Assembly (NCBI GenBank): GCA_964413645.1
Contig: CAYPSA010000001.1
Span: forward strand, 159,129 to 223,128
DNA length: 64,000 nt
Source of the DNA: an uncultured Gammaproteobacteria bacterium
GTDB taxonomy: Bacteria; Patescibacteriota; Microgenomatia; UBA1406; HO2-37-13b
Direction: 5' to 3'
The notes below the pieces were generated by a model. The model saw only the letters and a program-made list of their open reading frames with translations, ran no database searches and was not told the DNA's origin. Of this stretch, positions 3,492 through 62,092 are shown one piece after another. A program made the position numbers and the translations under genes. The number at the start of each line of letters is the position of its first letter. The stretch's first letter is position 1.

Positions 3492-4145
3492 CTCTTGCGT
3501 TTCAACAGTTCCTGCGCGATTGGTTGCAGTTATGACAATTTTATTTTCACCTTCTTTGATCCGAATAGAAGCCGAAAACTTTCCTTCTGCATTTGCAATA
3601 GTAGGTGATCCATTTACCCTAACTGATACATCTGGATCGGTTGATCCGCTAACAGTAATATCAGTTTGACTAATTCGTGATCCATTGGTTGGTGAATCAA
3701 TAATAAGCTTGGGTTTTTCATTTTGGTAAAGCACCGAGTACGTGTCCGATTTTTTGAAAATATTTAGTTTCTTCATGCGCATTTCTACATAAATTTCATT
3801 GAGTCCTTTTTGTAATAAAATATTTGTATCAAATGTATCTCCGTCAACTACCAATTCCTCCTGATTCGCGCCATTCACAATAATCGAAAGCTGTGAGCCA
3901 TCTGTTGCTGTTCCATGAACCGCAAGTGACGCAGAACTTGTCGCATCTGGAAGTGAAAGTAATTCTGGAGCTAGGACGAAATCCTGGGAATTGATCGTTG
4001 AAGACCCCCGTGATCCACTCGTAATATTGGCGATGAATAGAGAAGTATTGATAAGTAATTTAAATCCAATTGTAGCAAAGAAAATTATCAGTAACACTGC
4101 AAAAATCATTACGGTTAGCAATTGATTTTTCTTTTTTGGGCGCAT
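3465..4145 (-). CDS. membrane-anchored protein with two Ig-like (Big) repeats
   Basis: The ORF is trimmed to the Met at 4145 (MRPKKKNQ...), because the longer ORF would run through tRNA-Thr. It has an N-terminal TM helix and two repeated beta-rich segments. Confidence 0.5.
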   Translation of the reverse strand: MRPKKKNQLLTVMIFAVLLIIFFATIGFKLLINTSLFIANITSGSRGSSTINSQDFVLAPELLSLPDATSSASLAVHGTATDGSQLSIIVNGANQEELVVDGDTFDTNILLQKGLNEIYVEMRMKKLNIFKKSDTYSVLYQNEKPKLIIDSPTNGSRISQTDITVSGSTDPDVSVRVNGSPTIANAEGKFSASIRIKEGENKIVITATNRAGTVETQELTAIFESN

Positions 4146-6871: not shown

Positions 6872-7522
6872 TCACACAATTCCAGCAACAAAAATCATGG
6901 CTTTTACTGGATTACTTTGATCTTTTCGATGCGAAAAAAAAGTACTCGATTGGCAATAGGTACAAACATCACTCGTTTCGATGTTTGACGCTTGAACTCC
7001 TAAATTGGTTAATTGATTTTGGGCAATTTTTTTAAGATCAAGAAATATATTTGAATCTCTTTTGATGACTGCATCGGAGTATTGAGAGAATTTTTCAGTG
7101 ACATCTTTGCCTACCTCATAATGACATGGACCAATTGCTGGACCGATACCGACAAGGAGTTCGGCAGCACTCACTCCATAAGTCACTTGGAAAGTTGTAA
7201 GAGCCTTTTTAATAATTTTACTTTCCAATCCTCTCCATCCGGCGTGTAGTAAGCATAGTATTTCTTTTTCCGGGTGAAAGATCACAATCGGCAAGCAGTC
7301 TGCAACAGTGATTGAGAGATAAACGCCTTTTTCTGAAGTAATCAACCCATCGGTGTGAGGAACAATTTGTCCTTTATCAGCCGCAAAGACAGTTCTAATA
7401 TTATTTCCATGTTCTAGCTCCGCGCTCACAACGCTCTGTGGATCTATGGAGTGTTTTTCAAGAAAAGTATACCTATTACGAGTAATCTCATCGCTTTCCA
7501 ACTGATTACCTGGTAGTTTCAT
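6872..7522 (-). CDS. pgeF: PgeF/YfiH family purine nucleoside phosphorylase / laccase-domain protein (DUF152)
   Basis: Carries the LLHAGWRG motif. The ORF start is trimmed because the longer ORF overlaps tRNA-Gly; an alternative Met at 7570 would abut the tRNA. Confidence 0.65.
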   Translation of the reverse strand: MKLPGNQLESDEITRNRYTFLEKHSIDPQSVVSAELEHGNNIRTVFAADKGQIVPHTDGLITSEKGVYLSITVADCLPIVIFHPEKEILCLLHAGWRGLESKIIKKALTTFQVTYGVSAAELLVGIGPAIGPCHYEVGKDVTEKFSQYSDAVIKRDSNIFLDLKKIAQNQLTNLGVQASNIETSDVCTYCQSSTFFSHRKDQSNPVKAMIFVAGIV

Positions 7523-7569
7523 GCTCCCATCGGTGCGAAGAGAGATTACTGAGAAAATTTGTGAGCTCA

Positions 7570-7642
7570 TGAGCGGGATACGAGAATCGAACTCGCATCT
7601 CATCCTTGGGAAGGATGCATACTACCACTGTACTAATCCCGC
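7570..7642 (-). tRNA. tRNA-Gly(CCC)
   Basis: Acceptor GCGGGAT/ATCCCGC, anticodon stem CATCC/GGATG with loop TTCCCAA, and T-arm GCGAG-TTCGATT-CTCGT. Confidence 0.8.
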
Positions 7643-7668
7643 GTTAGCACAATTATACCAGTTTATGA

Positions 7669-8214
7669 CTATTTCCCTGGCAATGTTAGTAGGCTTCCTG
7701 TGTAAATTAAGTCAGGATTTGAAATTTTATTGAATTTTGCAATTTCAGGCCAACGGTAACCATCTCCGTATGCGCGAACAGATATATCCCATAAGGTGTC
7801 TCCATCTTTTATCGTGTATTTAGCGTCATTTAACGTTACTTGAGTGGTTTGAATGCTTGTTACGCTGCCTTGTTGCATTAAGATAGGCGTAACGTTAGGA
7901 ATAGTAAGTTCGGCACCAGCCGCAATGGTATTTGGATCAGAAATATTATTTGCTTTCGCAATGTCGTACGCATTATAGCCCGACCCAATTTCTTTTTCTG
8001 CAATGCTCCACAAGGTTTCACCAGCTTTTACTGTATGAACATTTTTCTGTTCCTGCGCTTCGGTCATAGCGGCTTCCTGCTGCTTTACTTTATTTAGCTG
8101 GTTTGTTACTAGTTTATAAGAAACACCCAGACCAATTAAAAATACAAGAAGTCCAACGACGATTGATTGATAGTTATCTAGCGCAATCTCTCGAGCTGAA
8201 CTGTTTTTTATCAT
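7669..8214 (-). CDS. LysM-domain peptidoglycan-binding protein (two LysM repeats, N-terminal TM anchor)
   Basis: HTVKAGETLWSIAEK and YTIKDGDTLWDISVRAYG are LysM signatures. Confidence 0.75.
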   Translation of the reverse strand: MIKNSSAREIALDNYQSIVVGLLVFLIGLGVSYKLVTNQLNKVKQQEAAMTEAQEQKNVHTVKAGETLWSIAEKEIGSGYNAYDIAKANNISDPNTIAAGAELTIPNVTPILMQQGSVTSIQTTQVTLNDAKYTIKDGDTLWDISVRAYGDGYRWPEIAKFNKISNPDLIYTGSLLTLPGK

Positions 8215-8307
8215 ACTGCGTACCGTGCATTATAGGAGTATTAATTGATTTATTGCAATATGATCAACTATAACGAAATAGTATAAGACTATACATTAAT
8301 TTTTTTC

Positions 8308-9387
8308 TTAGCGTTCACGCTTCAAGTGTTCACTTATATAGCGAACCTGGAAGGGAGTTAATAGTGGTTGACCTGCTTTTTGACGTGTGCGGACACTTTG
8401 TGAATTAGCCCATCTCATTAAGTTAAAACCATCGAAACTTGGGTCATGTCGAGCAAAGACTTGTTTGCCATTAACTACAGTTCCGGTTGGGATTAATTTA
8501 TCTGGTCTCTGGGGATCAAACGCAGCACGTGCTTCATCTTCAGTATATTGATGTCCAAATGTAAGTTCAGATGAAGTAAGCACTTTATCATACGTAATGT
8601 TATGTCTGTATCCATCGTCAAGTCCAAGTAAATGGCCACCCTCATGAAGTGCAACGTACAATGATTCCGGATTGTGTAAGGCAGTAAAAGCAATGTCGTG
8701 CTTGGTGGTATAATTTGTTGTGCCAAAAAAAATGTCAGTGTTAAGAAAAACTAGGGCTTTATCATAATTTCTACCTGTACTTTTCCGTATTGCGTCCATT
8801 ACGGCCTCAGATTCTTCTGGTCCTCTAACCAGTCGCTCATTAGCTCTTGTAAAAGGAATCGGTACAGGTTTTCTAAGATAAGAAATAGTAATGGGTAACT
8901 GTTCAAAGGCTTGCATAAATTCACGAGCGATATAATGAATTTTACAATTTTCCGATTCATCTCCATCAACCTGCATTAGTAAGATATGTGTATTCTCAGA
9001 ATGTGTTGGTCTACCATCTTGTTCAAAAAACAGAGCATCTTCAGAAGTTTGGTTGGTGCCCATGTCAACAAAGTCTGAAGCTTGAAAAGTTAGCTTTTGA
9101 AGAGATGCAATCTCCTGAGTATCCTGTGGCAAACAAATTATATCGGCGCCTGGTTTAGTGTCGTATGTAGTTTCTCCTACGCGCCCAGCAATATAAGAAG
9201 GTGGTCCATAAAAATCAGGAATGTCATAATGAATAGTTTCTCTAGAAACTGCTAAAGGTGAAAAAAGGGCTGCGCCTATAGCGCCTACTCGTAGCATTCG
9301 ACGTGCATTAATTGACTCCCTGACTCGTTTAAATTTAGTACTGACTGAGCTTTCTGGATTATTGGGAAGTGACTCAAGATGTGCCAT
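8308..9387 (-). CDS. metzincin-like zinc metallopeptidase
   Basis: HEGGHLLGLDDGYRH is an HExxHxxGxxD/H zinc-binding motif. The start is trimmed to the Met at 9387 because the upstream part of the ORF is made of tRNA-like repeats. A later Met at 9297 is followed by a signal-peptide-like MLRVGAIGAALFSPLAVS. Confidence 0.6.
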   Translation of the reverse strand: MAHLESLPNNPESSVSTKFKRVRESINARRMLRVGAIGAALFSPLAVSRETIHYDIPDFYGPPSYIAGRVGETTYDTKPGADIICLPQDTQEIASLQKLTFQASDFVDMGTNQTSEDALFFEQDGRPTHSENTHILLMQVDGDESENCKIHYIAREFMQAFEQLPITISYLRKPVPIPFTRANERLVRGPEESEAVMDAIRKSTGRNYDKALVFLNTDIFFGTTNYTTKHDIAFTALHNPESLYVALHEGGHLLGLDDGYRHNITYDKVLTSSELTFGHQYTEDEARAAFDPQRPDKLIPTGTVVNGKQVFARHDPSFDGFNLMRWANSQSVRTRQKAGQPLLTPFQVRYISEHLKRER

Positions 9388-9404
9388 GATTCTAAAAACA
9401 AGTT

Positions 9405-9708
9405 GCGCGACTGACCGGACTGCCAACCGGCGACCTGTCCGACAACTGTCGGACCGCTCTAACCAACTGAGCATATGTATGCGCGACTGACCGGACTGCC
9501 AACCGGCGACCTGTCCGACAACTGTCGGACCGCTCTAACCAACTGAGCATATGTATGCGCGACTGACCGGACTGCCAACCGGCGACCTGTCCGACAACTG
9601 TCGGACCGCTCTAACCAACTGAGCATATGTATGCGCGACTGACCGGACTGCCAACCGGCGACCTGTCCGACAACTGTCGGACCGCTCTAACCAACTGAGC
9701 ATATGTAT
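9405..9708 (-). repeat. four perfect 76-bp tandem repeats, each a tRNA-Asp-derived pseudo-tRNA
   Basis: The unit gcgcgactgaccggactgccaaccggcgacctgtccgacaactgtcggaccgctctaaccaactgagcatatgtat recurs at 9405, 9481, 9557 and 9633. Each unit keeps the D-arm, variable loop and T-stem of the adjacent tRNA-Asp. The anticodon arm is replaced by a perfect 7-bp stem with a 4-nt loop, the T-loop is 8 nt, and the 5' acceptor strand is degenerate. Confidence 0.9.
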
Positions 9709-9709
9709 G

Positions 9710-9783
9710 CGCGACTGACCGGACTCGAACCGGCGACCTTCCGCGTGACAGGCGGACGCTCTAACCAACTGAGCTACAATCGC
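9710..9783 (-). tRNA. tRNA-Asp(GUC)
   Basis: Acceptor GCGATTG/CAGTCGC, D-arm GCTC-AGTTGGTTA-GAGC, anticodon stem TCCGC/GCGGA with loop CTGTCAC, and T-arm GCCGG-TTCGAGT-CCGGT. Confidence 0.85.
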
Positions 9784-10040
9784 TTTAAAGATATTTTTTT
9801 ATTCGTAACTATTTTATCAATTATTTCCTTACTTTTAAGCTTTTTCAGGCTGCTCTCAATCCTACGTGCTTCAATCAAAGTTTCAAACTGCTGACAAAAC
9901 ACCATTGTAAATGGTAATGTTGATTTCGTTGCTTTCACTTTTCCTCTATTGTGCTCATCTAATCTTCGGTCGATATCACTCGATGAGCCAATATAATATC
10001 TCTTATTCTTATCTGACTGTAAAATATAAACGAAACTCAT
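9774..10040 (-). CDS. small GIY-YIG nuclease family protein (UPF0213/YhbQ-like, 88 aa)
   Basis: MSFVYILQSDKNKRYYIGSSSDIDRRLDEHNRGKV is a canonical GIY-YIG core. The ORF is AT-rich between GC-rich tRNA-like flanks, and its last codons AAG-CGA-TTG-TAG overlap the 5' acceptor stem of tRNA-Asp. Confidence 0.8.
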   Translation of the reverse strand: MSFVYILQSDKNKRYYIGSSSDIDRRLDEHNRGKVKATKSTLPFTMVFCQQFETLIEARRIESSLKKLKSKEIIDKIVTNKKISLKRL

Positions 10041-10097
10041 AACCGGCGACCTGTCCGACAACTGTCGGACCGCTCTAACCAACTGAGCTACAATCGC
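10041..10097 (-). repeat. partial pseudo-tRNA(Asp-like) copy: 5' acceptor, D-arm and pseudo anticodon hairpin, truncated at the T-stem where the GIY-YIG ORF starts
   Basis: GCGATTGTAGCTCAGTTGGTTAGAGCGGTCCGACAGTTGTCGGACAGGTCGCCGGTT is followed directly by the GIY-YIG ATG. Confidence 0.8.
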
Positions 10098-10139
10098 TTT
10101 GTTAAATTATACCATTTTTTATTCCAGTATAATAGAATA

Positions 10140-11906
10140 ATGCGTCCTTCCAACAAACAAATTGCTCACATTCTTCGATCGGTTGCTGCGGTATATGAAC
10201 TTAAAGGGGCGAATCGTTTTCGAATTATTGCGTACAATAATGCCGCGGATACGATTGATAATTTAAATAGGGAACTAGTTGATATTTGGGAGAACAAAGA
10301 ACTCTCAAAAATCGCAGGAATTGGATCGTCCATGACTGAGCGGCTTGCTGAGTATTTTGAAAAGGGAGATGATTCATATTTAATAAAAACGATTCAGGAG
10401 GTTCCGGCTCCTATTTTTGATTTAATGCGTGTACCAGGAATTGGGGTAAAAAAAGCGTTCAAGCTTGTATCAAATCTGCACTTAGAACAGTCTAAAGATA
10501 TATTTAGCGACATTATTGACCAAGCAAAAGCCGGAAATATTGCTCCACTTGATTCATTTGGTGAAAAATCGCAAGTAGAAATTATTGCAGCGGTTGAATT
10601 GTATGAAAAATCAAAGGGAAATGCAGATCGTATGCCATTACCTATTGCTCATGAACTGGCAATGGAGGTAATTGCGTACGTAAAAAAACATCCTCATGTT
10701 GGTGAAGTTGAAGCGCTCGGGTCACTGCGCCGATGGATGAGTACGATAGGAGATATTGATTTGGTTGCAATAGTGCCTACGGAGCATTTTGCATCGGTTA
10801 TCGAGCATTTTGTTAAATTTCCAGGAGCTGCCAAAATTGAAGCACAAGGAGAAAATAAGGCATCAATAATTTTGGCAAATGGTCGACGGATTGATCTGCG
10901 CGTCGTAGAGAGTGGGGTCTACGGGTCGATGATCCAGTATTTTACTGGTAGCAAAGCGCATAATATTAAGCTTCGAGAATTAGCGCTCAAAAAGGGATAC
11001 TCAATCTCCGAATACGGTATTGGCGATAAGAGCGAGAAAGGAACAATCGGACGGTCAAAAACATTTGCATCCGAAAAGGATTTTTATGAATATTTAGGTG
11101 TAGATTGGATTCCGCCTGAACTACGTGAAGGAACGAGTGAGGTTGATATTGCGGTTAAACACGAGATTCCGGAGCTCGTAAAAGTTTCCGATGTAAAAGG
11201 AGATTTTCATATACATTCTAATTACGATTTAAACACTTCTCACGATCTTGGCCACGAAAGCGTTGTCGACATAGCTCAAAAAGCTCAATCACTCGGTTAT
11301 GAATATATTGCAATTTCCGATCACAATCCTGCTCAAAATGTCCCTAAGGAGAAAGTAATTGAAATAATGAAAAAAAGATTCGAACATATGAAATCGCAAA
11401 AAACTGTAATTCCATGTTTTGTTTCGCTTGAAATAGATATTACTCCTAGCGGAGATCTTGCACTGCCCGAAGAAGCATTTAACTATTTAGATATGGCAGT
11501 CGTTTCATTGCACAGTTCATTTCGACAAAGTCGTACCGACATGACAAAACGAGTTTTAAAAGCGCTTTCACACGAAAAAGTAAAAATCTTTGGGCATCCA
11601 ACCGGTCGACAATTGGGTAAGCGACCTGAAGTAGATGTTGATTGGACGACTGTTTTTAAGTTTTGTAAAGAAAAAAATATAGCACTTGAAATTAATAGTT
11701 GGCCTGAACGGTTAGATCTTCCTGACATGCTCGTCCGTGAAGCAAAGGAGATCGGATGTAAATTCACCATCGATACCGATGCCCATGCTATCTCACAAAT
11801 GGATAACATGTTTTATGGCGTTTCCGTTGCACGTCGCGGGTGGCTTGACAAGAATGATATAATGAACTGTAAGGGGTATAAAGAAGTAGTTAAATGGATT
11901 GGCTAG
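10140..11906 (+). CDS. polX: DNA polymerase X family protein with C-terminal PHP phosphoesterase domain
   Basis: N-terminal HhH/pol-beta-like region followed by PHP motifs (HIHSNYD, DHN). TATAAT at 10128-10133 lies 6 nt before the ATG, so the mRNA is probably leaderless. Confidence 0.8.
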   Translation: MRPSNKQIAHILRSVAAVYELKGANRFRIIAYNNAADTIDNLNRELVDIWENKELSKIAGIGSSMTERLAEYFEKGDDSYLIKTIQEVPAPIFDLMRVPGIGVKKAFKLVSNLHLEQSKDIFSDIIDQAKAGNIAPLDSFGEKSQVEIIAAVELYEKSKGNADRMPLPIAHELAMEVIAYVKKHPHVGEVEALGSLRRWMSTIGDIDLVAIVPTEHFASVIEHFVKFPGAAKIEAQGENKASIILANGRRIDLRVVESGVYGSMIQYFTGSKAHNIKLRELALKKGYSISEYGIGDKSEKGTIGRSKTFASEKDFYEYLGVDWIPPELREGTSEVDIAVKHEIPELVKVSDVKGDFHIHSNYDLNTSHDLGHESVVDIAQKAQSLGYEYIAISDHNPAQNVPKEKVIEIMKKRFEHMKSQKTVIPCFVSLEIDITPSGDLALPEEAFNYLDMAVVSLHSSFRQSRTDMTKRVLKALSHEKVKIFGHPTGRQLGKRPEVDVDWTTVFKFCKEKNIALEINSWPERLDLPDMLVREAKEIGCKFTIDTDAHAISQMDNMFYGVSVARRGWLDKNDIMNCKGYKEVVKWIG

Positions 11907-11980
11907 TTGTCTTTTCGAAGGAGTGAAATGACTGAGAAATCTCTGAAGATGCGAAAACATTATAAATTGCAAATATAAAT

Positions 11981-12535
11981 ATGAATATAACCATGATACT
12001 GATTGTCGTATTAGTTTTGTTTGTTGGGTATGTTTTTGCAACATACAACAGTCTCGTTACACTTAGAAATCGCATTAAAGAAGCATTTTCTCAAATTGAT
12101 GTGCAGCTTAAACGACGGGTGGATTTAATTCCGAATTTAATTGAAACCGTTAAAGGCTATGCAAAACATGAGAAAACTGTTTTTGAAAATGTAACCAAAG
12201 CACGCTCTGCTTTAATGGGAGCAACAACTAAGCAAGCAAAGTCAGATGCAGATAATATGCTCACCGACGCTCTTAAGAGCTTATTTGCTGTTGCAGAAGC
12301 GTATCCAGATCTTAAGGCTTCAGAAAATTTTTCTCAATTGCAACGTCAGCTTGAAGACACAGAAGATAAAATTGCTTATTCACGACAGTTTTATAACAGC
12401 AATGTGCTAGATTACAACAATAAAATTCAAACGGTTCCAAGCAGTGTAATTGCTAATATGTTTAACTTTAAAGAAGAAGCTTTCTTTGAAGCAACCGAAG
12501 CCGAGAAAAAAAATGTTAACGTAAAATTTGATTAA
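11981..12535 (+). CDS. lemA: LemA family protein
   Basis: N-terminal TM helix followed by the conserved LemA region [43 protein letters not shown]. Confidence 0.85.
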
Positions 12536-12549
12536 CGAAGTAAATTCTT

Positions 12550-13449
12550 ATGACGACACATAACCAAGTTGCCGGTAATAAAGCAAAAACATATGTAATT
12601 ATGTTTTTCTTTGTGGCGTTTGTGTCATTTTTCTTTTACTTAATCGGTAAAAATTTAGGTGACTCGTCATTTTATTTAGCTTTTGGACTTATTTTCTCTC
12701 TTATATCTTCAGTGGGAAGTTACTTTTACTCAGATAAGCTTGTATTGGCAATGAGTGGAGCAAAACCCGCCGACAAAAAAACATATTTTGATTTGTATAC
12801 CGTTACCGAGAATATGGCAATTGCAGCCGGCGTTCCCATGCCGCGGGTATATGTTATTGAAGACAGCGCAATGAACGCTTTTGCAACTGGTCGCGATCCG
12901 CAGCATGCAGTCGTTGTTGCTACAACGGGGATTCTCAGCAAATTAAATCGTGCCGAACTTGAAGGTGTTATTGCTCATGAGCTATCACACATAAAAAATT
13001 ACGATATTCGATTAATGGCTGTAGTTGCAGTACTTGTTGGAACCGTTGTTTTTGTTGCTGATTGGATAACTCGAAGTTTCATGTGGGGTGGCATGCGAGA
13101 TTCGGATGACGATTCTGCAAGCGGTAAAGCAAGTTTTATTTTGTTTATAATCTTCCTTTTCGTTACTCCAATTATTGCAACACTTATTCAATTGGCAGTT
13201 TCTCGTCGTCGCGAGTATTTAGCTGATGCTTCAGGAGCACTTCTTAATCGTAATCCCGATGCACTTGCCGATGCACTTTTAAAGATTTCAGGAGATAGCA
13301 AAATCCTAGCAAAAGCATCCAACGCAACCGCACATTTATTTATTGAAAATCCATTTAAAAAAGATTCAAAAAAGACCAATTTTGTAGCCGGCTTATTTAG
13401 TACACATCCACCGGTCGACGAACGAATCAGGCTTTTGAGAGAGATGTAG
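12550..13449 (+). CDS. htpX: HtpX-like M48 zinc metalloprotease
   Basis: HELSHIKNYD is an HExxH motif, and four TM helices are predicted. LemA-HtpX pairs are common in other bacteria. Confidence 0.85.
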   Translation: MTTHNQVAGNKAKTYVIMFFFVAFVSFFFYLIGKNLGDSSFYLAFGLIFSLISSVGSYFYSDKLVLAMSGAKPADKKTYFDLYTVTENMAIAAGVPMPRVYVIEDSAMNAFATGRDPQHAVVVATTGILSKLNRAELEGVIAHELSHIKNYDIRLMAVVAVLVGTVVFVADWITRSFMWGGMRDSDDDSASGKASFILFIIFLFVTPIIATLIQLAVSRRREYLADASGALLNRNPDALADALLKISGDSKILAKASNATAHLFIENPFKKDSKKTNFVAGLFSTHPPVDERIRLLREM

Positions 13450-58967: not shown

Positions 58968-60797
58968 ATGAACTTTTTTGGACGGGTATCTGTTTTCGTA
59001 ACATTCATTTTTTTGGTGGCAATATCTCTTTTAACACCTAAAAGTGTTGCTGCTACTCCGTATAAAGTCGTTTATAACGCGGAATATACACCTATCAATG
59101 AATCAGACCTAGCAGTAAAGCTCCTTATTTCTTTACAAAACCTACGATCCGATGTATACATTCGAGAATTCAGTATTAATTTACCACCTCACTTCGCAAT
59201 TGTTAATCCGCAAACCAAAATAGAGAACGAAGTGGCACAAGCCCAAATAAAATCAGAAAAGAACAGTACCCAAATTACTTTTTCTCTTCCCGAAAGTTCT
59301 GCAAGCAATAAAACTCAAACCAACCTAGAACTTACGTATACACAAAAAAATGGCATACGACATGTGGGCTCAATTTGGGAAGTGATTCTACCTACTATTT
59401 CAAATAAAGAAAACTCATCGTTTTCTGCTTTGTTTCATGTCCCGCCAAGAGTTGACAGGCATGTTGGAGTAATCAAACCTGCTCCAACTGAAGTTTCAGG
59501 CGAAATCATTCGATGGGATAATGTTAAACAATCAGTTATCTATATTGCTTTTGGAACTTCTCAACGGTATCAATCAAATTTAACGTATACCATCAAGAAT
59601 CCTGATTTATTGACAAAAAAAACATCTATCGCGCTTCCACCACATACATCCTATCAAAAAATTTATGAAAATTTTATCGATCCCCAACCCGCACGAACAT
59701 ATATTGATTCCGATGGAAATTATCTTGCAGAATATACTCTCAGACCAAAGCAAGAGATGATGATTCATTATTCAGGAATAGTAGAAGTTTTTGCCCGTCC
59801 TAATAATGACATGAGGCCGTTTAATGAAATTGCGTATAACGAACAGAAAAAATATATTTTCAATAATGTTTCTTACTGGAATGTTCCAAAGTCGTACGAA
59901 TTTCCCGAAAAAATCACCTCTGTTAAAGACGTTTTTGATCGTGTAGTGAATCATCTTAGTTACGATAAGGAACAAATCAAATCATCTGGATCGCGTAAAG
60001 GCGCTCAATTTGCCCTTACAAATCCCAATCAAGCTGTTTGTACTGAATATACCGATTTATTTGTGGCTCTTGCTCGAAATGCCAATTTTCCAGCTCGTGA
60101 AATCGAAGGATTTGCATATAGTGATGACCCAACATTGCGTCCACAATCATTTTCTGGCGATATTTTACATTCTTGGCCCGAGTATTATGACGAATCTCAA
60201 AGCTTGTGGATTCCCACAGATCCTACTTGGGCTGATACATCCAACATAGATTACTTTAGCTCTTTTGACTTGAATCACATTGTACTTGCAATTCATGGAA
60301 AGGATCCCGTATATCCACTACCTGCAGGAATGTATAAAGTGCGTGATCAAAAAGATATAGATATTAAGCCAATCGCCACACTTCCCAAGGAAATAAAAAA
60401 TATCAGCGCAACAATTTCCATGAATGAAACCGTTGCTCCGCTTTCCACAGCACACGGATCAGTTATTATCGAGAATAAGAGTAATGTGTTTTTAGTTGAT
60501 CCTTCATTTAGACTAAAAAGCTCCTCGTTAACGTTTAAACCAAACGTGCTTTCAACCAAACTAATTGCGCCAAATGAAAAGCGCGAAATTAAATTTAGCT
60601 ACACAGTTTCAAAGAATGCGTCGGAAACGAACAAAGCTCGTGTATCACTACTTCTGGATGAAAATGAAATTGCTTACGAAGATCTATCTATACAATCATC
60701 TTTTGAATCAATTTTAAATTATGTAATTGGTATCGCAATTGCTCTCATCATACTTGTTCTTGTTTTCTTCAAATACATTAAACATCGAATTTCATGA
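58968..60797 (+). CDS. transglutaminase-like domain protein with N-terminal signal/TM and C-terminal TM anchor
   Basis: QAVCTEYTDLFVALARNANFPAREIEGFAY contains the catalytic Cys of a transglutaminase-like core. Both ends are hydrophobic. Confidence 0.6.
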   Translation: MNFFGRVSVFVTFIFLVAISLLTPKSVAATPYKVVYNAEYTPINESDLAVKLLISLQNLRSDVYIREFSINLPPHFAIVNPQTKIENEVAQAQIKSEKNSTQITFSLPESSASNKTQTNLELTYTQKNGIRHVGSIWEVILPTISNKENSSFSALFHVPPRVDRHVGVIKPAPTEVSGEIIRWDNVKQSVIYIAFGTSQRYQSNLTYTIKNPDLLTKKTSIALPPHTSYQKIYENFIDPQPARTYIDSDGNYLAEYTLRPKQEMMIHYSGIVEVFARPNNDMRPFNEIAYNEQKKYIFNNVSYWNVPKSYEFPEKITSVKDVFDRVVNHLSYDKEQIKSSGSRKGAQFALTNPNQAVCTEYTDLFVALARNANFPAREIEGFAYSDDPTLRPQSFSGDILHSWPEYYDESQSLWIPTDPTWADTSNIDYFSSFDLNHIVLAIHGKDPVYPLPAGMYKVRDQKDIDIKPIATLPKEIKNISATISMNETVAPLSTAHGSVIIENKSNVFLVDPSFRLKSSSLTFKPNVLSTKLIAPNEKREIKFSYTVSKNASETNKARVSLLLDENEIAYEDLSIQSSFESILNYVIGIAIALIILVLVFFKYIKHRIS

Positions 60798-62092
60798 TTA
60801 CTTCCAAAGATATTTCATCGATTCCATCAACGACTGGAGTGTATTTTTTCTATAAAAACGATATTCCGATTTACATCGGAAAGGCAGTTAATTTGAAAGC
60901 TCGATTAACGTCGCACTTGCAGAATGCTAAATTAGACAGAAAAGAAGCCGCAATAATCGAACAAGCAGACCGAGTTGACTACACGCAAACCCTTTCAGAT
61001 TTTGAGGCAATAATTTTGGAAGCAAACTTAGTGCGCAAATTCATGCCGCAATACAATATTCAGCTCAAAGATGATAAGAGTTATTTATATATAAAAATTT
61101 CAATCAAAGATAAGTATCCAAAGATATCCTTAGTTCGACGTGAAAATGATGGAAATTCGCTTTACTTTGGTCCATTCCAATCAAATCGCTTAACCCGATC
61201 ACTTCTTTCACATATACGAAAAATAGTATCATTTTGTACCCAAAAAAAACTAGGAAGAACCGGATGTTTTTACTCTAAAATTGGGCTTTGCAATCCATGT
61301 CCTTCGGCTGTTGATCGCCTGGAAGATCAAACACTCAAAAAAGTTCTTCATCAACAGTATTTACACAACATTAAATTAATTGTAAAAATTTTTGATGGAA
61401 ACTCATCCTTCGTGCTCAAGCATTTAGAAAAAGATCTTCTTATTGAAACTCAGAAAGAAAATTATGAAAAAGCTTTAGTAATCCGTGACAAACTATTACT
61501 TCTCGAGAATTTACTCCATACACGCTCCTTTTCGTCTTGGGACGACATTCGTATTACCAATAAGGCCAGCATTAGGACGGCAATAGAAGAGTTTATGCTA
61601 GCAAATTTTGCCGCCTCACAAATCTCGACGAGCTTTAGGATCGAATGTTACGACATTAGTAATCTATTCGGGAAAGACGCCACTGCATCAATGGTTGTTT
61701 TTCAAGATGGGGGAATAGAGAAAAAGGAATACAGACGTTTCAAAATTAGAACTGTACAGGGGATTTCGGATTTTGCAATGCTTCAGGAAGTTTTAACCCG
61801 TCGATTTAATCAAAGTAAATGGCAGCGTCCCGATTTGCTTGTTATCGACGGAGGACCCCCGCAACTACGAGCTACTCGCAAAATACTTGAAGAATTACAG
61901 ATTTCTATTCCCATGATTGGCATAGCAAAACACCCTGACCGACTTTTTAAAGTTGCAGGACGTATTTCGCCAGCTTTATATAGACGTAATTCAACTTTTT
62001 TTAGAATAATTCAAGAAATCCGCGACGAATCACATCGTTTCGCAAAAAAATACCATTTACTTCTACGGAACAAAAAAATGGTGTATAATTAA
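60794..62092 (+). CDS. uvrC: excinuclease ABC subunit C, short form lacking the C-terminal (HhH)2 domain
   Basis: N-terminal GIY-YIG (GVYFFYKNDIPIYIGKA...RL..H), a UVR-like helix, and the endonuclease domain motifs VIDGGPPQL and IRDESHRFA. The protein ends after 432 aa. Confidence 0.85.
   Translation: MITSKDISSIPSTTGVYFFYKNDIPIYIGKAVNLKARLTSHLQNAKLDRKEAAIIEQADRVDYTQTLSDFEAIILEANLVRKFMPQYNIQLKDDKSYLYIKISIKDKYPKISLVRRENDGNSLYFGPFQSNRLTRSLLSHIRKIVSFCTQKKLGRTGCFYSKIGLCNPCPSAVDRLEDQTLKKVLHQQYLHNIKLIVKIFDGNSSFVLKHLEKDLLIETQKENYEKALVIRDKLLLLENLLHTRSFSSWDDIRITNKASIRTAIEEFMLANFAASQISTSFRIECYDISNLFGKDATASMVVFQDGGIEKKEYRRFKIRTVQGISDFAMLQEVLTRRFNQSKWQRPDLLVIDGGPPQLRATRKILEELQISIPMIGIAKHPDRLFKVAGRISPALYRRNSTFFRIIQEIRDESHRFAKKYHLLLRNKKMVYN

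Follow-up and report, generated by a model that had tools for sequence, protein, structure and literature searches.

A tRNA-Asp locus with a minimal GIY-YIG nuclease gene and hairpin-bearing partial tRNA copies: a probable member of a widespread tRNA-resident element family

A 64,000-nucleotide (nt) stretch of contig CAYPSA010000001.1 (assembly GCA_964413645.1, positions 159,129 to 223,128; hereafter the window, numbered from its first letter) holds a tRNA-Asp locus in which, on the minus strand, a 57-nt 5′ copy of tRNA-Asp is followed by a GIY-YIG open reading frame (ORF) of 88 amino acids (aa), by the intact tRNA-Asp(GUC) and by four identical units of 76 base pairs (bp). This locus is probably, at a likelihood that we put near 0.6, one copy of a widespread family of tRNA-resident elements, in which an Ssn-like minimal GIY-YIG nuclease (~88 aa) and its cognate hairpin are lodged inside partial tRNA duplicates. 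The evidence consists of the anatomy of the locus, its recurrence at many other tRNAs, hairpin types that vary together with nuclease clades and contrasts between related genomes. The kind of pair involved, an Ssn-like nuclease with its hairpin, is already known; what is new here is the tRNA setting, and no description of a tRNA-embedded nuclease/hairpin arrangement was found in the literature searched (full text).

All parts of the locus lie on the minus strand, and their order, coordinates and sequence details stand as given in an earlier reading of the letters alone (the sequence-only reading). About 9 nt upstream of the pseudo-tRNA is an extended −10-like motif, TGGTATAAT (10106–10114), which by its sequence is the likely start of one transcript taking in pseudo-tRNA, ORF, tRNA and array; a consensus promoter scan did not list it because its −35 hexamer is poor, and the same TGGTATAAT precedes the orthologous pseudo-tRNA of L001, a syntenic contig discussed below. 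The 5′ block of the upstream pseudo-tRNA (10071–10097) copies tRNA-Asp positions 1–26, that is the acceptor 5′ strand, the D arm and G26, and is identical to 9783–9757 at 27 of 27 nt. In place of the anticodon arm stands the signature hairpin GTCCGAC-AGTT-GTCGGAC (10053–10070), which ends 12 nt before the ATG of the ORF; those 12 nt, AGGTCGCCGGTT (10041–10052), correspond to tRNA positions 44–55 (variable loop, T-stem 5′ strand and first two T-loop bases), and the tRNA homology of the pseudo-copy stops at the ATG itself. The nuclease gene (9774–10040; Pfam PF01541, E = 1.5e-15) has its 3′ end inside the tRNA (9783–9774), which supplies the last nine coding nt and the TAG stop. That stop (9776–9774) is formed by tRNA positions U8-A9-G10, a use of the tRNA that the sequence-only reading missed. 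The intact tRNA-Asp(GUC) itself is placed at 9709–9783 by ARAGORN, and Rfam RF00005 scores 71.4 bits at 9710–9783.

The four ORF-less units (9405–9708) are one identical string, by direct string comparison in a script as well as in a repeat search (100% identity), and they abut head to tail without spacers, so that the array is indeed not CRISPR-like. Tandem Repeats Finder reports a 76-bp period with 4.9 copies and a score of 670 at 9404–9774, a count that takes in the related tRNA. Each unit runs from a linker, (C)ATACATAT, through tRNA positions 10–26, the hairpin, positions 44–53, the T loop, the T-stem 3′ strand and the acceptor 3′ strand with G73. As had been read from the letters, parts of the D arm, variable loop, T stem and 3′ acceptor strand are thus kept and a perfect 7-bp hairpin replaces the anticodon arm (9665–9682, 9589–9606, 9513–9530 and 9437–9454 in units 1 to 4). 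Equally present are the altered T loop, TTGGCAGT where tRNA-Asp has TTCGAGT, and the linker CATACATAT that replaces the tRNA 5′ acceptor strand. The claim that the units are pseudo-tRNAs held when tRNA finders were run over them: ARAGORN calls none, nor does the Rfam tRNA model at E ≤ 10, and Rfam has no family for the 76-bp units beyond a weak YrlA match. The unit linker, CATACATATG, retains an ATG 8 nt past the tRNA end.

The hairpin string GTCCGACAGTTGTCGGAC occurs five times in the 64 kb, always at the tRNA-Asp locus (at 9437, 9513, 9589, 9665 and 10053), compared with 0.04 in shuffles; one copy lies upstream of the ORF and the other four downstream, beyond the tRNA. The sole other match in the window to CCGAY-N4-RTCGG (CCGAYNNNNRTCGG), at 60866–60879, falls on the P-I-Y-I-G codons of the GIY-YIG motif of an uvrC-like ORF (60794–62092, plus strand); 0.09 such matches are expected per window, and this one is a chance occurrence inside coding sequence.

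With its single minimal domain, the nuclease belongs to the UPF0213/Slx1/Ssn type, a point on which the sequence-only reading was silent. Pfam GIY-YIG spans residues 2–71 of its 88 aa, and residues Y5, Y16 and E62 are invariant in 80 homologues. A single-sequence homology search with the window protein returned only the protein itself, the word index used being insensitive, while a profile built from six sequences retrieved 4427 homologous clusters at E ≤ 1e-5, nearly all of 87–100 aa and either unnamed or called 'GIY-YIG nuclease family protein'. Against PDB sequences, the family profile finds UPF0213 BH0048 (1zg2, E = 1.2e-12), EF2693 (1ywl, 1.2e-7) and Slx1 (7e-4). The AlphaFold (AF2) model is predicted as one bare GIY-YIG domain with a mean predicted local distance difference test (pLDDT) of 89, and Foldseek places this model closest to 1zg2 and Slx1 7cq3 (TM score 0.65, root-mean-square deviation 1.5 Å). 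Since a separate DNA-binding domain is missing, the classical I-TevI/Seg homing-endonuclease model does not fit. The NCBIfam model grpIintron_endo reaches 31.5 bits with a cut-off of 56, over residues 1–39 only. A group I intron was also considered and discarded, Rfam finding none at the locus; the 35/36 introns of Nakagawa 2026 (PMC13011429) are without GIY-YIG.

Recurrence was established in two ways, one led by the hairpin and the other blind to it. An exact scan of 185,579 species genomes with the pattern GCGGTCCGACNNNNGTCGGACAG, in which the loop bases are free, gave 21 loci, at least 12 of them on Patescibacteria contigs (labelled Uhr-, Sacchari-, Jorgensen-, Parcu-, Colwellbacteria and others), several at contig ends. 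The layout of the window returns in these Patescibacteria loci, at tRNAs for Arg, Val, Pro, Ala and Asp, and the six nucleases compared share 41–50% pairwise identity. The arrangement, called layout 1 here, reads: tRNA positions 1–26, hairpin, variable loop and T-stem 5′ strand (to position 55 in the window), GIY-YIG ORF, intact tRNA. It is seen in L006 (tRNA-Arg), L014 (Val), L022 (Pro) and L026 (Asp), with the ORF ending in the same frame at T8-A9-G10, and L024 (Ala) has the ORF, then a second, ORF-less hairpin copy and then the tRNA. Single ORF-less units following intact tRNAs were found in L006/L018, L011, L012, L015, L016, L022, L090 and L107; they consist of the 3′ part of the D arm, the hairpin, the variable loop, the T arm and the 3′ acceptor strand, and are of the same type as the window units. 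Seven high-GC matches of the scan (L009, L010, L013, L019–L021 and L023) are unrelated chance occurrences, and two matches in 16S rRNA (L017 and L025) were put aside as unrelated. In the latter two (L017:85–107 and L025:7353–7375) the same 7-bp stem, GCGGTCCGAC-N4-GTCGGACAG, forms a short helix near the 5′ end of the 16S rRNA gene, in the context ...GCAAGTCGA-GCGGTCCGAC-NNNN-GTCGGACAG-CGGCAGACG...; one is labelled Colwellbacteria and the other belongs to a Gammaproteobacteria-labelled metagenome-assembled genome (MAG), and this is probably a coincidence with a truncated helix.

The hairpin-blind sample came from a metagenome scan seeded only by the peptide RYYIGSTN and comprises 80 loci with 65 non-redundant complete ORFs. 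More than half of these ORFs (35 of 65) have their stop at the U8-A9-G10 TAG, within the initial 10 nt of a tRNA on the same strand, and for another 17 a tRNA begins 0–150 nt past the stop. A second arrangement, layout 2, was scored in 4 loci of the sample, with 3 more truncated cases (L049, L083 and L099). Here an intact tRNA comes first and ends 2–5 nt before the ATG of the ORF, which is followed by tRNA positions ~19–26, the hairpin, the variable loop, the T arm and the 3′ acceptor strand; the stop is the TAG of a D-loop remnant (GGT-TAG-AGCG) and the hairpin begins 4 nt further on. ORF-bearing equivalents of the window units are found in L061, L063, L083, L084, L097 and L111. The tRNAs occupied include Ala (GGC, TGC and CGC), Val, Asp, Gly, Asn, Ile, Thr, Phe, Glu, Arg and Pro, and the layout was met on a 642-kb Elusimicrobia-labelled contig (tRNA-Gly) and in a Planctomycetes-labelled MAG (tRNA-Arg). 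In L111, tRNA-Ala(CGC) is followed by ORF1, a hairpin unit, ORF2 and another hairpin unit, each ORF starting right after a ...CTCCAC 3′ end. The four units of the window look like an ORF-less version of such an array, namely layout-2 units that lack the ORF and have been amplified as a derivative in which the linker ATG survives. Elsewhere among the loci examined, tandem arrays are short (L081, 43 nt × 3.1; L088, 62 nt × 2; L103, 122 nt × 2). The one in L081 (242–372, 96% match) lies directly upstream of a GIY-YIG ORF at tRNA-Asn and consists of interlocking GTCCGAC/GTCGGAC and GTCGGAG hairpin halves, hairpins only, without tRNA-derived parts. In L103 (1778–2026) the duplicated stretch, perfect in both copies, comprises the greater part of tRNA-Val(GAC) and a piece of CTCCGAC hairpin; the array reaches the contig end and is either a genuine array or an assembly cycle.

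What recurs at these loci is above all the hairpin, which is the conserved signature of the element and no local accident, another feature that had escaped the sequence-only reading. The palindrome that replaces the anticodon arm of the pseudo-copies has the form NN-CCGA-Y/N4/R-TCGG-NN, of which the core CCGA-Y/N4/R-TCGG was fixed by the search pattern while the outer two pairs and the loop-closing pair were free to vary. Among the 59 core hairpins outside ORFs in the hairpin-blind sample, 46 lie at most 120 nt upstream of an ORF, 6 just past a stop, 3 after a tRNA and 4 elsewhere. The arms are perfectly complementary in 54 of the 59, with 10 different perfect arm pairs, and the variants are compensatory (TCCCGAT/ATCGGGA, GTCCGAT/ATCGGAC, CCCCGAT/ATCGGGG, CTCCGAY and ATCCGAC). 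The first and fourth loop bases are also complementary in 42 of 59 hairpins (~25% by chance), which turns these into 8+2+8 palindromes with two central bases and therefore fits a signal at the DNA level better than an RNA loop. An origin from the local anticodon stem was ruled out, the same hairpin replacing the unrelated anticodon arms of Arg, Val, Pro and Ala tRNAs, and a likeness to the Hpy188I site (TCNGA) fails for arms of the TCCCGA type.

The position of the hairpin is likewise regular, its start lying near tRNA position 26/27 (23–30 across 43 loci). In about 30 of these 43 loci, the 25–27 nt before the hairpin match the adjacent tRNA at 85% identity or more, and past the hairpin the collinear tRNA block ends anywhere from position 44 to 59. 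In L068, L087 and L089 the D arm of the pseudo-copy is unlike that of the adjacent tRNA and matches tRNA-Ala of other lineages, which suggests import from another lineage. Extra or nested hairpins occur in L029, L051, L075, L081, L082, L085, L086, L102 and L110; the number of such loci indicates that the hairpin itself proliferates. In a neighbour-joining tree, hairpin type largely tracks nuclease clade and less so tRNA identity, with L046 as an exception. At the Ala-GGC loci L024 and L042, for example, GTCCGAY hairpins accompany nucleases that cluster with those of Val and Asp loci. Both layouts are found among close relatives at tRNA-Val(GAC).

Differences between related genomes concern the ORF and the array, the parts that vary between lineages. 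Five syntenic contigs (L001–L005) were reached via a PolX protein in the same 90%-identity cluster as that of the window. On the minus strand of L001, TGGTATAAT is followed by GCGATTGTAGCTC, a TCCGCC-TTCT-GGCGGA hairpin, TGGTTAGCGCG, GTCCGACAGTTGTCGGAC, 11 nt, an intact tRNA-Asp identical to that of the window and the gene for a 359-aa protein. Thus, L001 and L002 have the identical 18-nt hairpin upstream of the identical tRNA-Asp and neither the GIY-YIG ORF nor the array, in genomes only ~68–89% identical in nucleotides to the window (~89% in PolX and ~68% in the 359-aa gene for L001). The hairpin being unchanged between flanks that differ by 11–32%, the hairpin-bearing pseudo-copy must be either old or constrained. 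The D loop of the L001 pseudo-tRNA is broken by the TCCGCC-TTCT-GGCGGA hairpin (3507–3522, minus strand); the insert resembles the genuine anticodon arm of tRNA-Asp (TCCGCC-TGTCAC-GCGGA), its loop shortened, which makes the pseudo-copy look like a mosaic built from rearranged parts of tRNA. L001 also has an extra gene (3588–3971), for a 127-aa protein with no Pfam match, between PolX and the tRNA locus; the window lacks it (10098–10139), and there PolX starts 42 nt from the pseudo-tRNA.

How such loci might arise can be proposed by analogy with the Ssn nucleases. The nuclease would bind its own hairpin in single-stranded DNA (ssDNA), as exposed during replication or heavy tRNA transcription, and would nick nearby, leaving host repair to use the short tRNA-derived homologies. 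A tRNA gene would then recombine with a hairpin-bearing tRNA segment that carries the ORF: crossing over on the 5′ side of the hairpin would give layout 1 (pseudo-5′-copy, ORF, intact tRNA), crossing over on its 3′ side layout 2 (intact tRNA, ORF, pseudo-3′-copy), and in either case the intact tRNA would be rebuilt and a partial copy with the hairpin left behind. Tandem arrays could be produced, and kept identical, by further rounds of this process or by unequal exchange that breaks within the units stimulate. Maturation of the tRNA by RNase P, which would remove the stop codon of the ORF, may limit expression of the nuclease. Two regularities find an explanation in the architecture: with nuclease and hairpin sitting inside partial tRNA duplicates, the intact tRNA is always kept, and with the stop falling in both layouts within the tRNA-like segment of the element itself, the reading frame is fixed. 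In its fullest form the proposal is of a tRNA-resident element class in which an Ssn-type nuclease and hairpin would use the tRNA as scaffold, promoter, stop and homology donor, would copy themselves by hairpin-directed nicking and tRNA-rebuilding repair, would be throttled by RNase P and would leave arrays as nuclease-driven, dynamically expanding non-autonomous copies; we regard this fuller version as tentative and would give it somewhat below even odds.

Several considerations weigh against assigning the locus to such a family, or limit what the assignment conveys. The hairpin-blind sample rests on one protein sub-motif, and some of the bins may be mislabelled. Within the 64 kb, the hairpins are confined to the tRNA-Asp locus and are not dispersed as NTS repeats are in Neisseria; they also miss the published SRM consensus HGTCWYN(0-2)YYVSBRHN(0-5)WNVSBRGN(0-2)RNCYNB, with 0 matches on either strand. 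The window protein is likened to SsnA via a published description, and its best solved relatives are UPF0213 and Slx1. Because GIY-YIG enzymes hydrolyse DNA without rejoining it, the insertion steps must be the work of host recombination, which is conjecture. Given the low identity of L001 to the window, the presence or absence of ORF and array may go back to an ancient loss instead of a recent acquisition. Lastly, the count of four units comes from a single assembly.

Four other explanations have to be weighed, two of which the sequence-only reading had itself put forward in some form. It had called the array a possible tRNA-derived minisatellite, which is correct as a description but explains nothing. 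In its strict version, slippage or unequal crossing-over would have multiplied one pre-existing hairpin unit, the GIY-YIG gene being an unrelated or decaying passenger; four perfectly identical copies are to be expected of recent slippage, most other loci have a single downstream unit and the other arrays (L081, L088 and L103) are short. None of this accounts for the origin of the unit, for hairpin types that track nuclease clades, or for ORFs and hairpin units flanking tRNAs in dozens of unrelated loci, with iteration in L111. Slippage alone could nevertheless have been the last expansion step, which would make it a partial account and no true rival; as a complete explanation it is unlikely. 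The number four, in turn, could be an assembly artefact, arising if the assembler went round a cycle in the de Bruijn graph arbitrarily often, in a genome that holds one or two units. A perfect 304-bp tandem repeat is uncountable from short reads, related contigs often break at such repeats (L006/L018, L003–L005, L007 and L008) and no independent assembly of the source genome is on record; exact look-ups of the window GIY-YIG protein in its 88-aa and 102-aa readings, of P0001 and of the window PolX returned no contig. The unit-to-unit junction ...GTCGCGCATACATATGCTCAG... requires at least two adjacent units, and the unit as well as the upstream copy is corroborated by many independent loci, so that an artefact, which we rate a little lower again and still as a minor chance, would touch only the count and not the nature of the element.

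The suggestion that the units are decoy tRNA-like RNAs fared worse, in that the tRNA-derived parts are variably truncated or overwritten across the family and the hairpin alone is kept. More broadly, the units might be functional RNAs co-transcribed with tRNA-Asp, for example decoys that draw off tRNA-binding enzymes or toxins, elements that affect processing or stability, or modules of a Y-RNA-like kind. They do share the strand of the tRNA, which they follow directly, and have the common promoter-like TGGTATAAT upstream of them; when folded they keep hairpins resembling the D and T arms; weak YrlA matches (20 bits, E = 0.33) extend across unit boundaries; and the changes in the hairpin arms are compensatory. 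The gathering score of the YrlA model (RF02553) is 69, far above these 20 bits, and the match stems from the tandem D and T arms of tRNA origin. The units, which the tRNA finders do not see, have no 5′ acceptor strand and a stem-loop of 7 bp with a 4-nt loop instead of a 7-nt anticodon loop, and in the family at large T arms are truncated, altered or overwritten by further hairpins while upstream copies lack the whole 3′ half. Two central bases, as in 42 of the 59 palindromes, are too few for an RNA loop and fit a DNA palindrome, the imperfect arms contain C·A mismatches as often as G·T pairs, and SsnA does not bind RNA (PMC11893778). A functional RNA is accordingly improbable in our judgement. 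The least credible alternative by far is that the locus is the scar of integrase-mediated elements that target tRNA genes, with the partial copies as stacked att sites. Such integration is well known to leave partial tRNA fragments beside intact tRNAs. At the present locus, no integrase-like ORF overlaps 7000–13000, the five neighbouring proteins have no Pfam integrase domain, there is no cargo between copies that repeat with a 76-bp period, the upstream copy is a 5′ and not a 3′ fragment, and every copy has a foreign hairpin for its anticodon arm, which att duplication does not yield. Closest of the three readings offered from the letters was that of a footprint of GIY-YIG homing and duplication at a tRNA, which agrees with the dozens of independent loci and with the iteration in L111; what does not stand is the classical homing endonuclease with its DNA-binding domain.

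If the locus does belong to a tRNA-resident element family, a very large family of small, unnamed GIY-YIG proteins (the 4427 clusters) would gain a context and would be tied to the Ssn ssDNA nucleases. It would also exemplify a new way of occupying an essential single-copy gene without destroying it, by duplicating part of the tRNA, overwriting the anticodon arm with a recognition hairpin and borrowing promoter and stop. Such elements could explain why assemblies of uncultured genomes break at tRNA loci, why spurious ORFs arise and why Patescibacteria contain fragments of pseudo-tRNA, and natural nuclease/hairpin pairs with distinct arms are candidate ssDNA tool enzymes with new specificities.

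Spurious ORFs of this type are found beside the array. As the sequence-only reading had noticed, the in-repeat ATG creates artefactual ORFs, among them a reading of 388 aa (8308–9474) that starts inside the array and extends the neighbouring protease-like gene. That gene, which has an HEGGH motif and lies outside the element (8308–9387, minus strand), most likely starts at 9387, giving 359 aa as called for its syntenic counterpart in L001. The 359-aa protein has no Pfam or NCBIfam match and is 62% identical to its counterpart, the adjacent PolX being 89% identical in DNA; it is a fast-evolving, metalloprotease-like and probably secreted protein, HEGGH being a zinc-protease-like motif. Elsewhere in the window, the longest reading of a Cu-oxidase_4 ORF (243 aa; 6872–7603, minus strand) overlaps tRNA-Gly(ccc) (7571–7642) by ~30 nt. 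In the relative the gene is called at 216 aa, and the long start here probably comes, once more, from an ORF wrongly extended at a tRNA.

Among known systems, several share single features with the locus. Partial non-functional tRNA copies beside an intact tRNA recall integrative elements, whereas here integrase and cargo are missing, the fragments come from either end of the tRNA, 5′ or 3′, and each has the signature hairpin where its anticodon arm would be. REP/BIME repeats with their RAYT (IS200/IS605-like) partners resemble the present family in tying a short hairpin family to one small nuclease gene, in forming clusters or nested arrays (here L029, L051, L075, L081 and L110) and in having non-autonomous copies; they differ in fold and chemistry (HUH/Y1 instead of GIY-YIG) and in being dispersed between genes, while the hairpins described here are inside tRNA-derived scaffolds. 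SegB and I-TevI are larger proteins with a separate DNA-binding domain, unlike the bare 88-aa catalytic domain of the window, and we know of no hairpin-substituted tRNA copies in Seg elements. As a free-standing GIY-YIG homing endonuclease, SegB of phage T4 is comparable in that its gene lies among or against tRNAs, is present or absent between relatives and is presumed to spread by break repair and co-conversion, and it cuts double-stranded DNA (dsDNA) (PMC2330249). With UPF0213 and prokaryotic Slx1-like proteins (BH0048, 1ZG2; EF2693, 1YWL; Dunin-Horkawicz et al. 2006, PMC1564403), the window protein has the stand-alone minimal domain in common, and the literature searched describes no function, hairpin partner or tRNA linkage for UPF0213; eukaryotic Slx1, in contrast to the window protein, needs Slx4 and has a RING domain.

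The nearest described analogue, which the sequence-only reading did not name, is that of the Ssn nucleases with their flanking hairpins (Chenal et al. 2025, Nat Commun, PMC11893778), single-domain GIY-YIG ssDNA nucleases of ~94 aa (cd10448). SsnA (94 aa) binds a hairpin repeat (NTS, generalised as SRM) in ssDNA only and cuts a few nt upstream; Ssn proteins have no activity on dsDNA or RNA, and the gene layout SRM-ssnA-SRM is common (PMC11893778). Catalytic spacing is alike (Y5, Y16 and E62 in the window, Y6, Y17 and E64 in SsnA), both proteins are single-domain and of ~90 aa, both genes have a cognate hairpin-forming inverted repeat on either side, hairpin sequence co-varies with nuclease lineage in both, and arms of the family such as TCCCGAT/ATCGGGA compare with NTS TCCCGCG/CGCGGGA. 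When the 80 sampled loci were searched, the SRM consensus matched once (L090) against 0.56 by chance, and it is too loose for one match to count. Two of the environmental contigs with family GIY-YIG genes do have near-canonical Neisseria-type NTS/dRS3 repeats (TGTCATTCCCGCG...GCGGGAATC), at L090:449–537 and at L103:144–171, the latter ~1,350 nt upstream of the ORF. L090 forms a direct bridge between the Ssn system and the tRNA-linked family: its nuclease is 48% identical to the window protein, its ORF abuts tRNA-Asp, two near-canonical NTS copies lie upstream and a CCGAY-type pseudo-tRNA unit lies downstream of the tRNA. What sets the family apart from Ssn, whose published account nowhere mentions tRNA (PMC11893778), is that the window hairpins occur only at the tRNA locus, each replacing the anticodon arm of a partial tRNA copy, and that ORFs of the window type are fused to an intact tRNA whose TAG serves as their stop.

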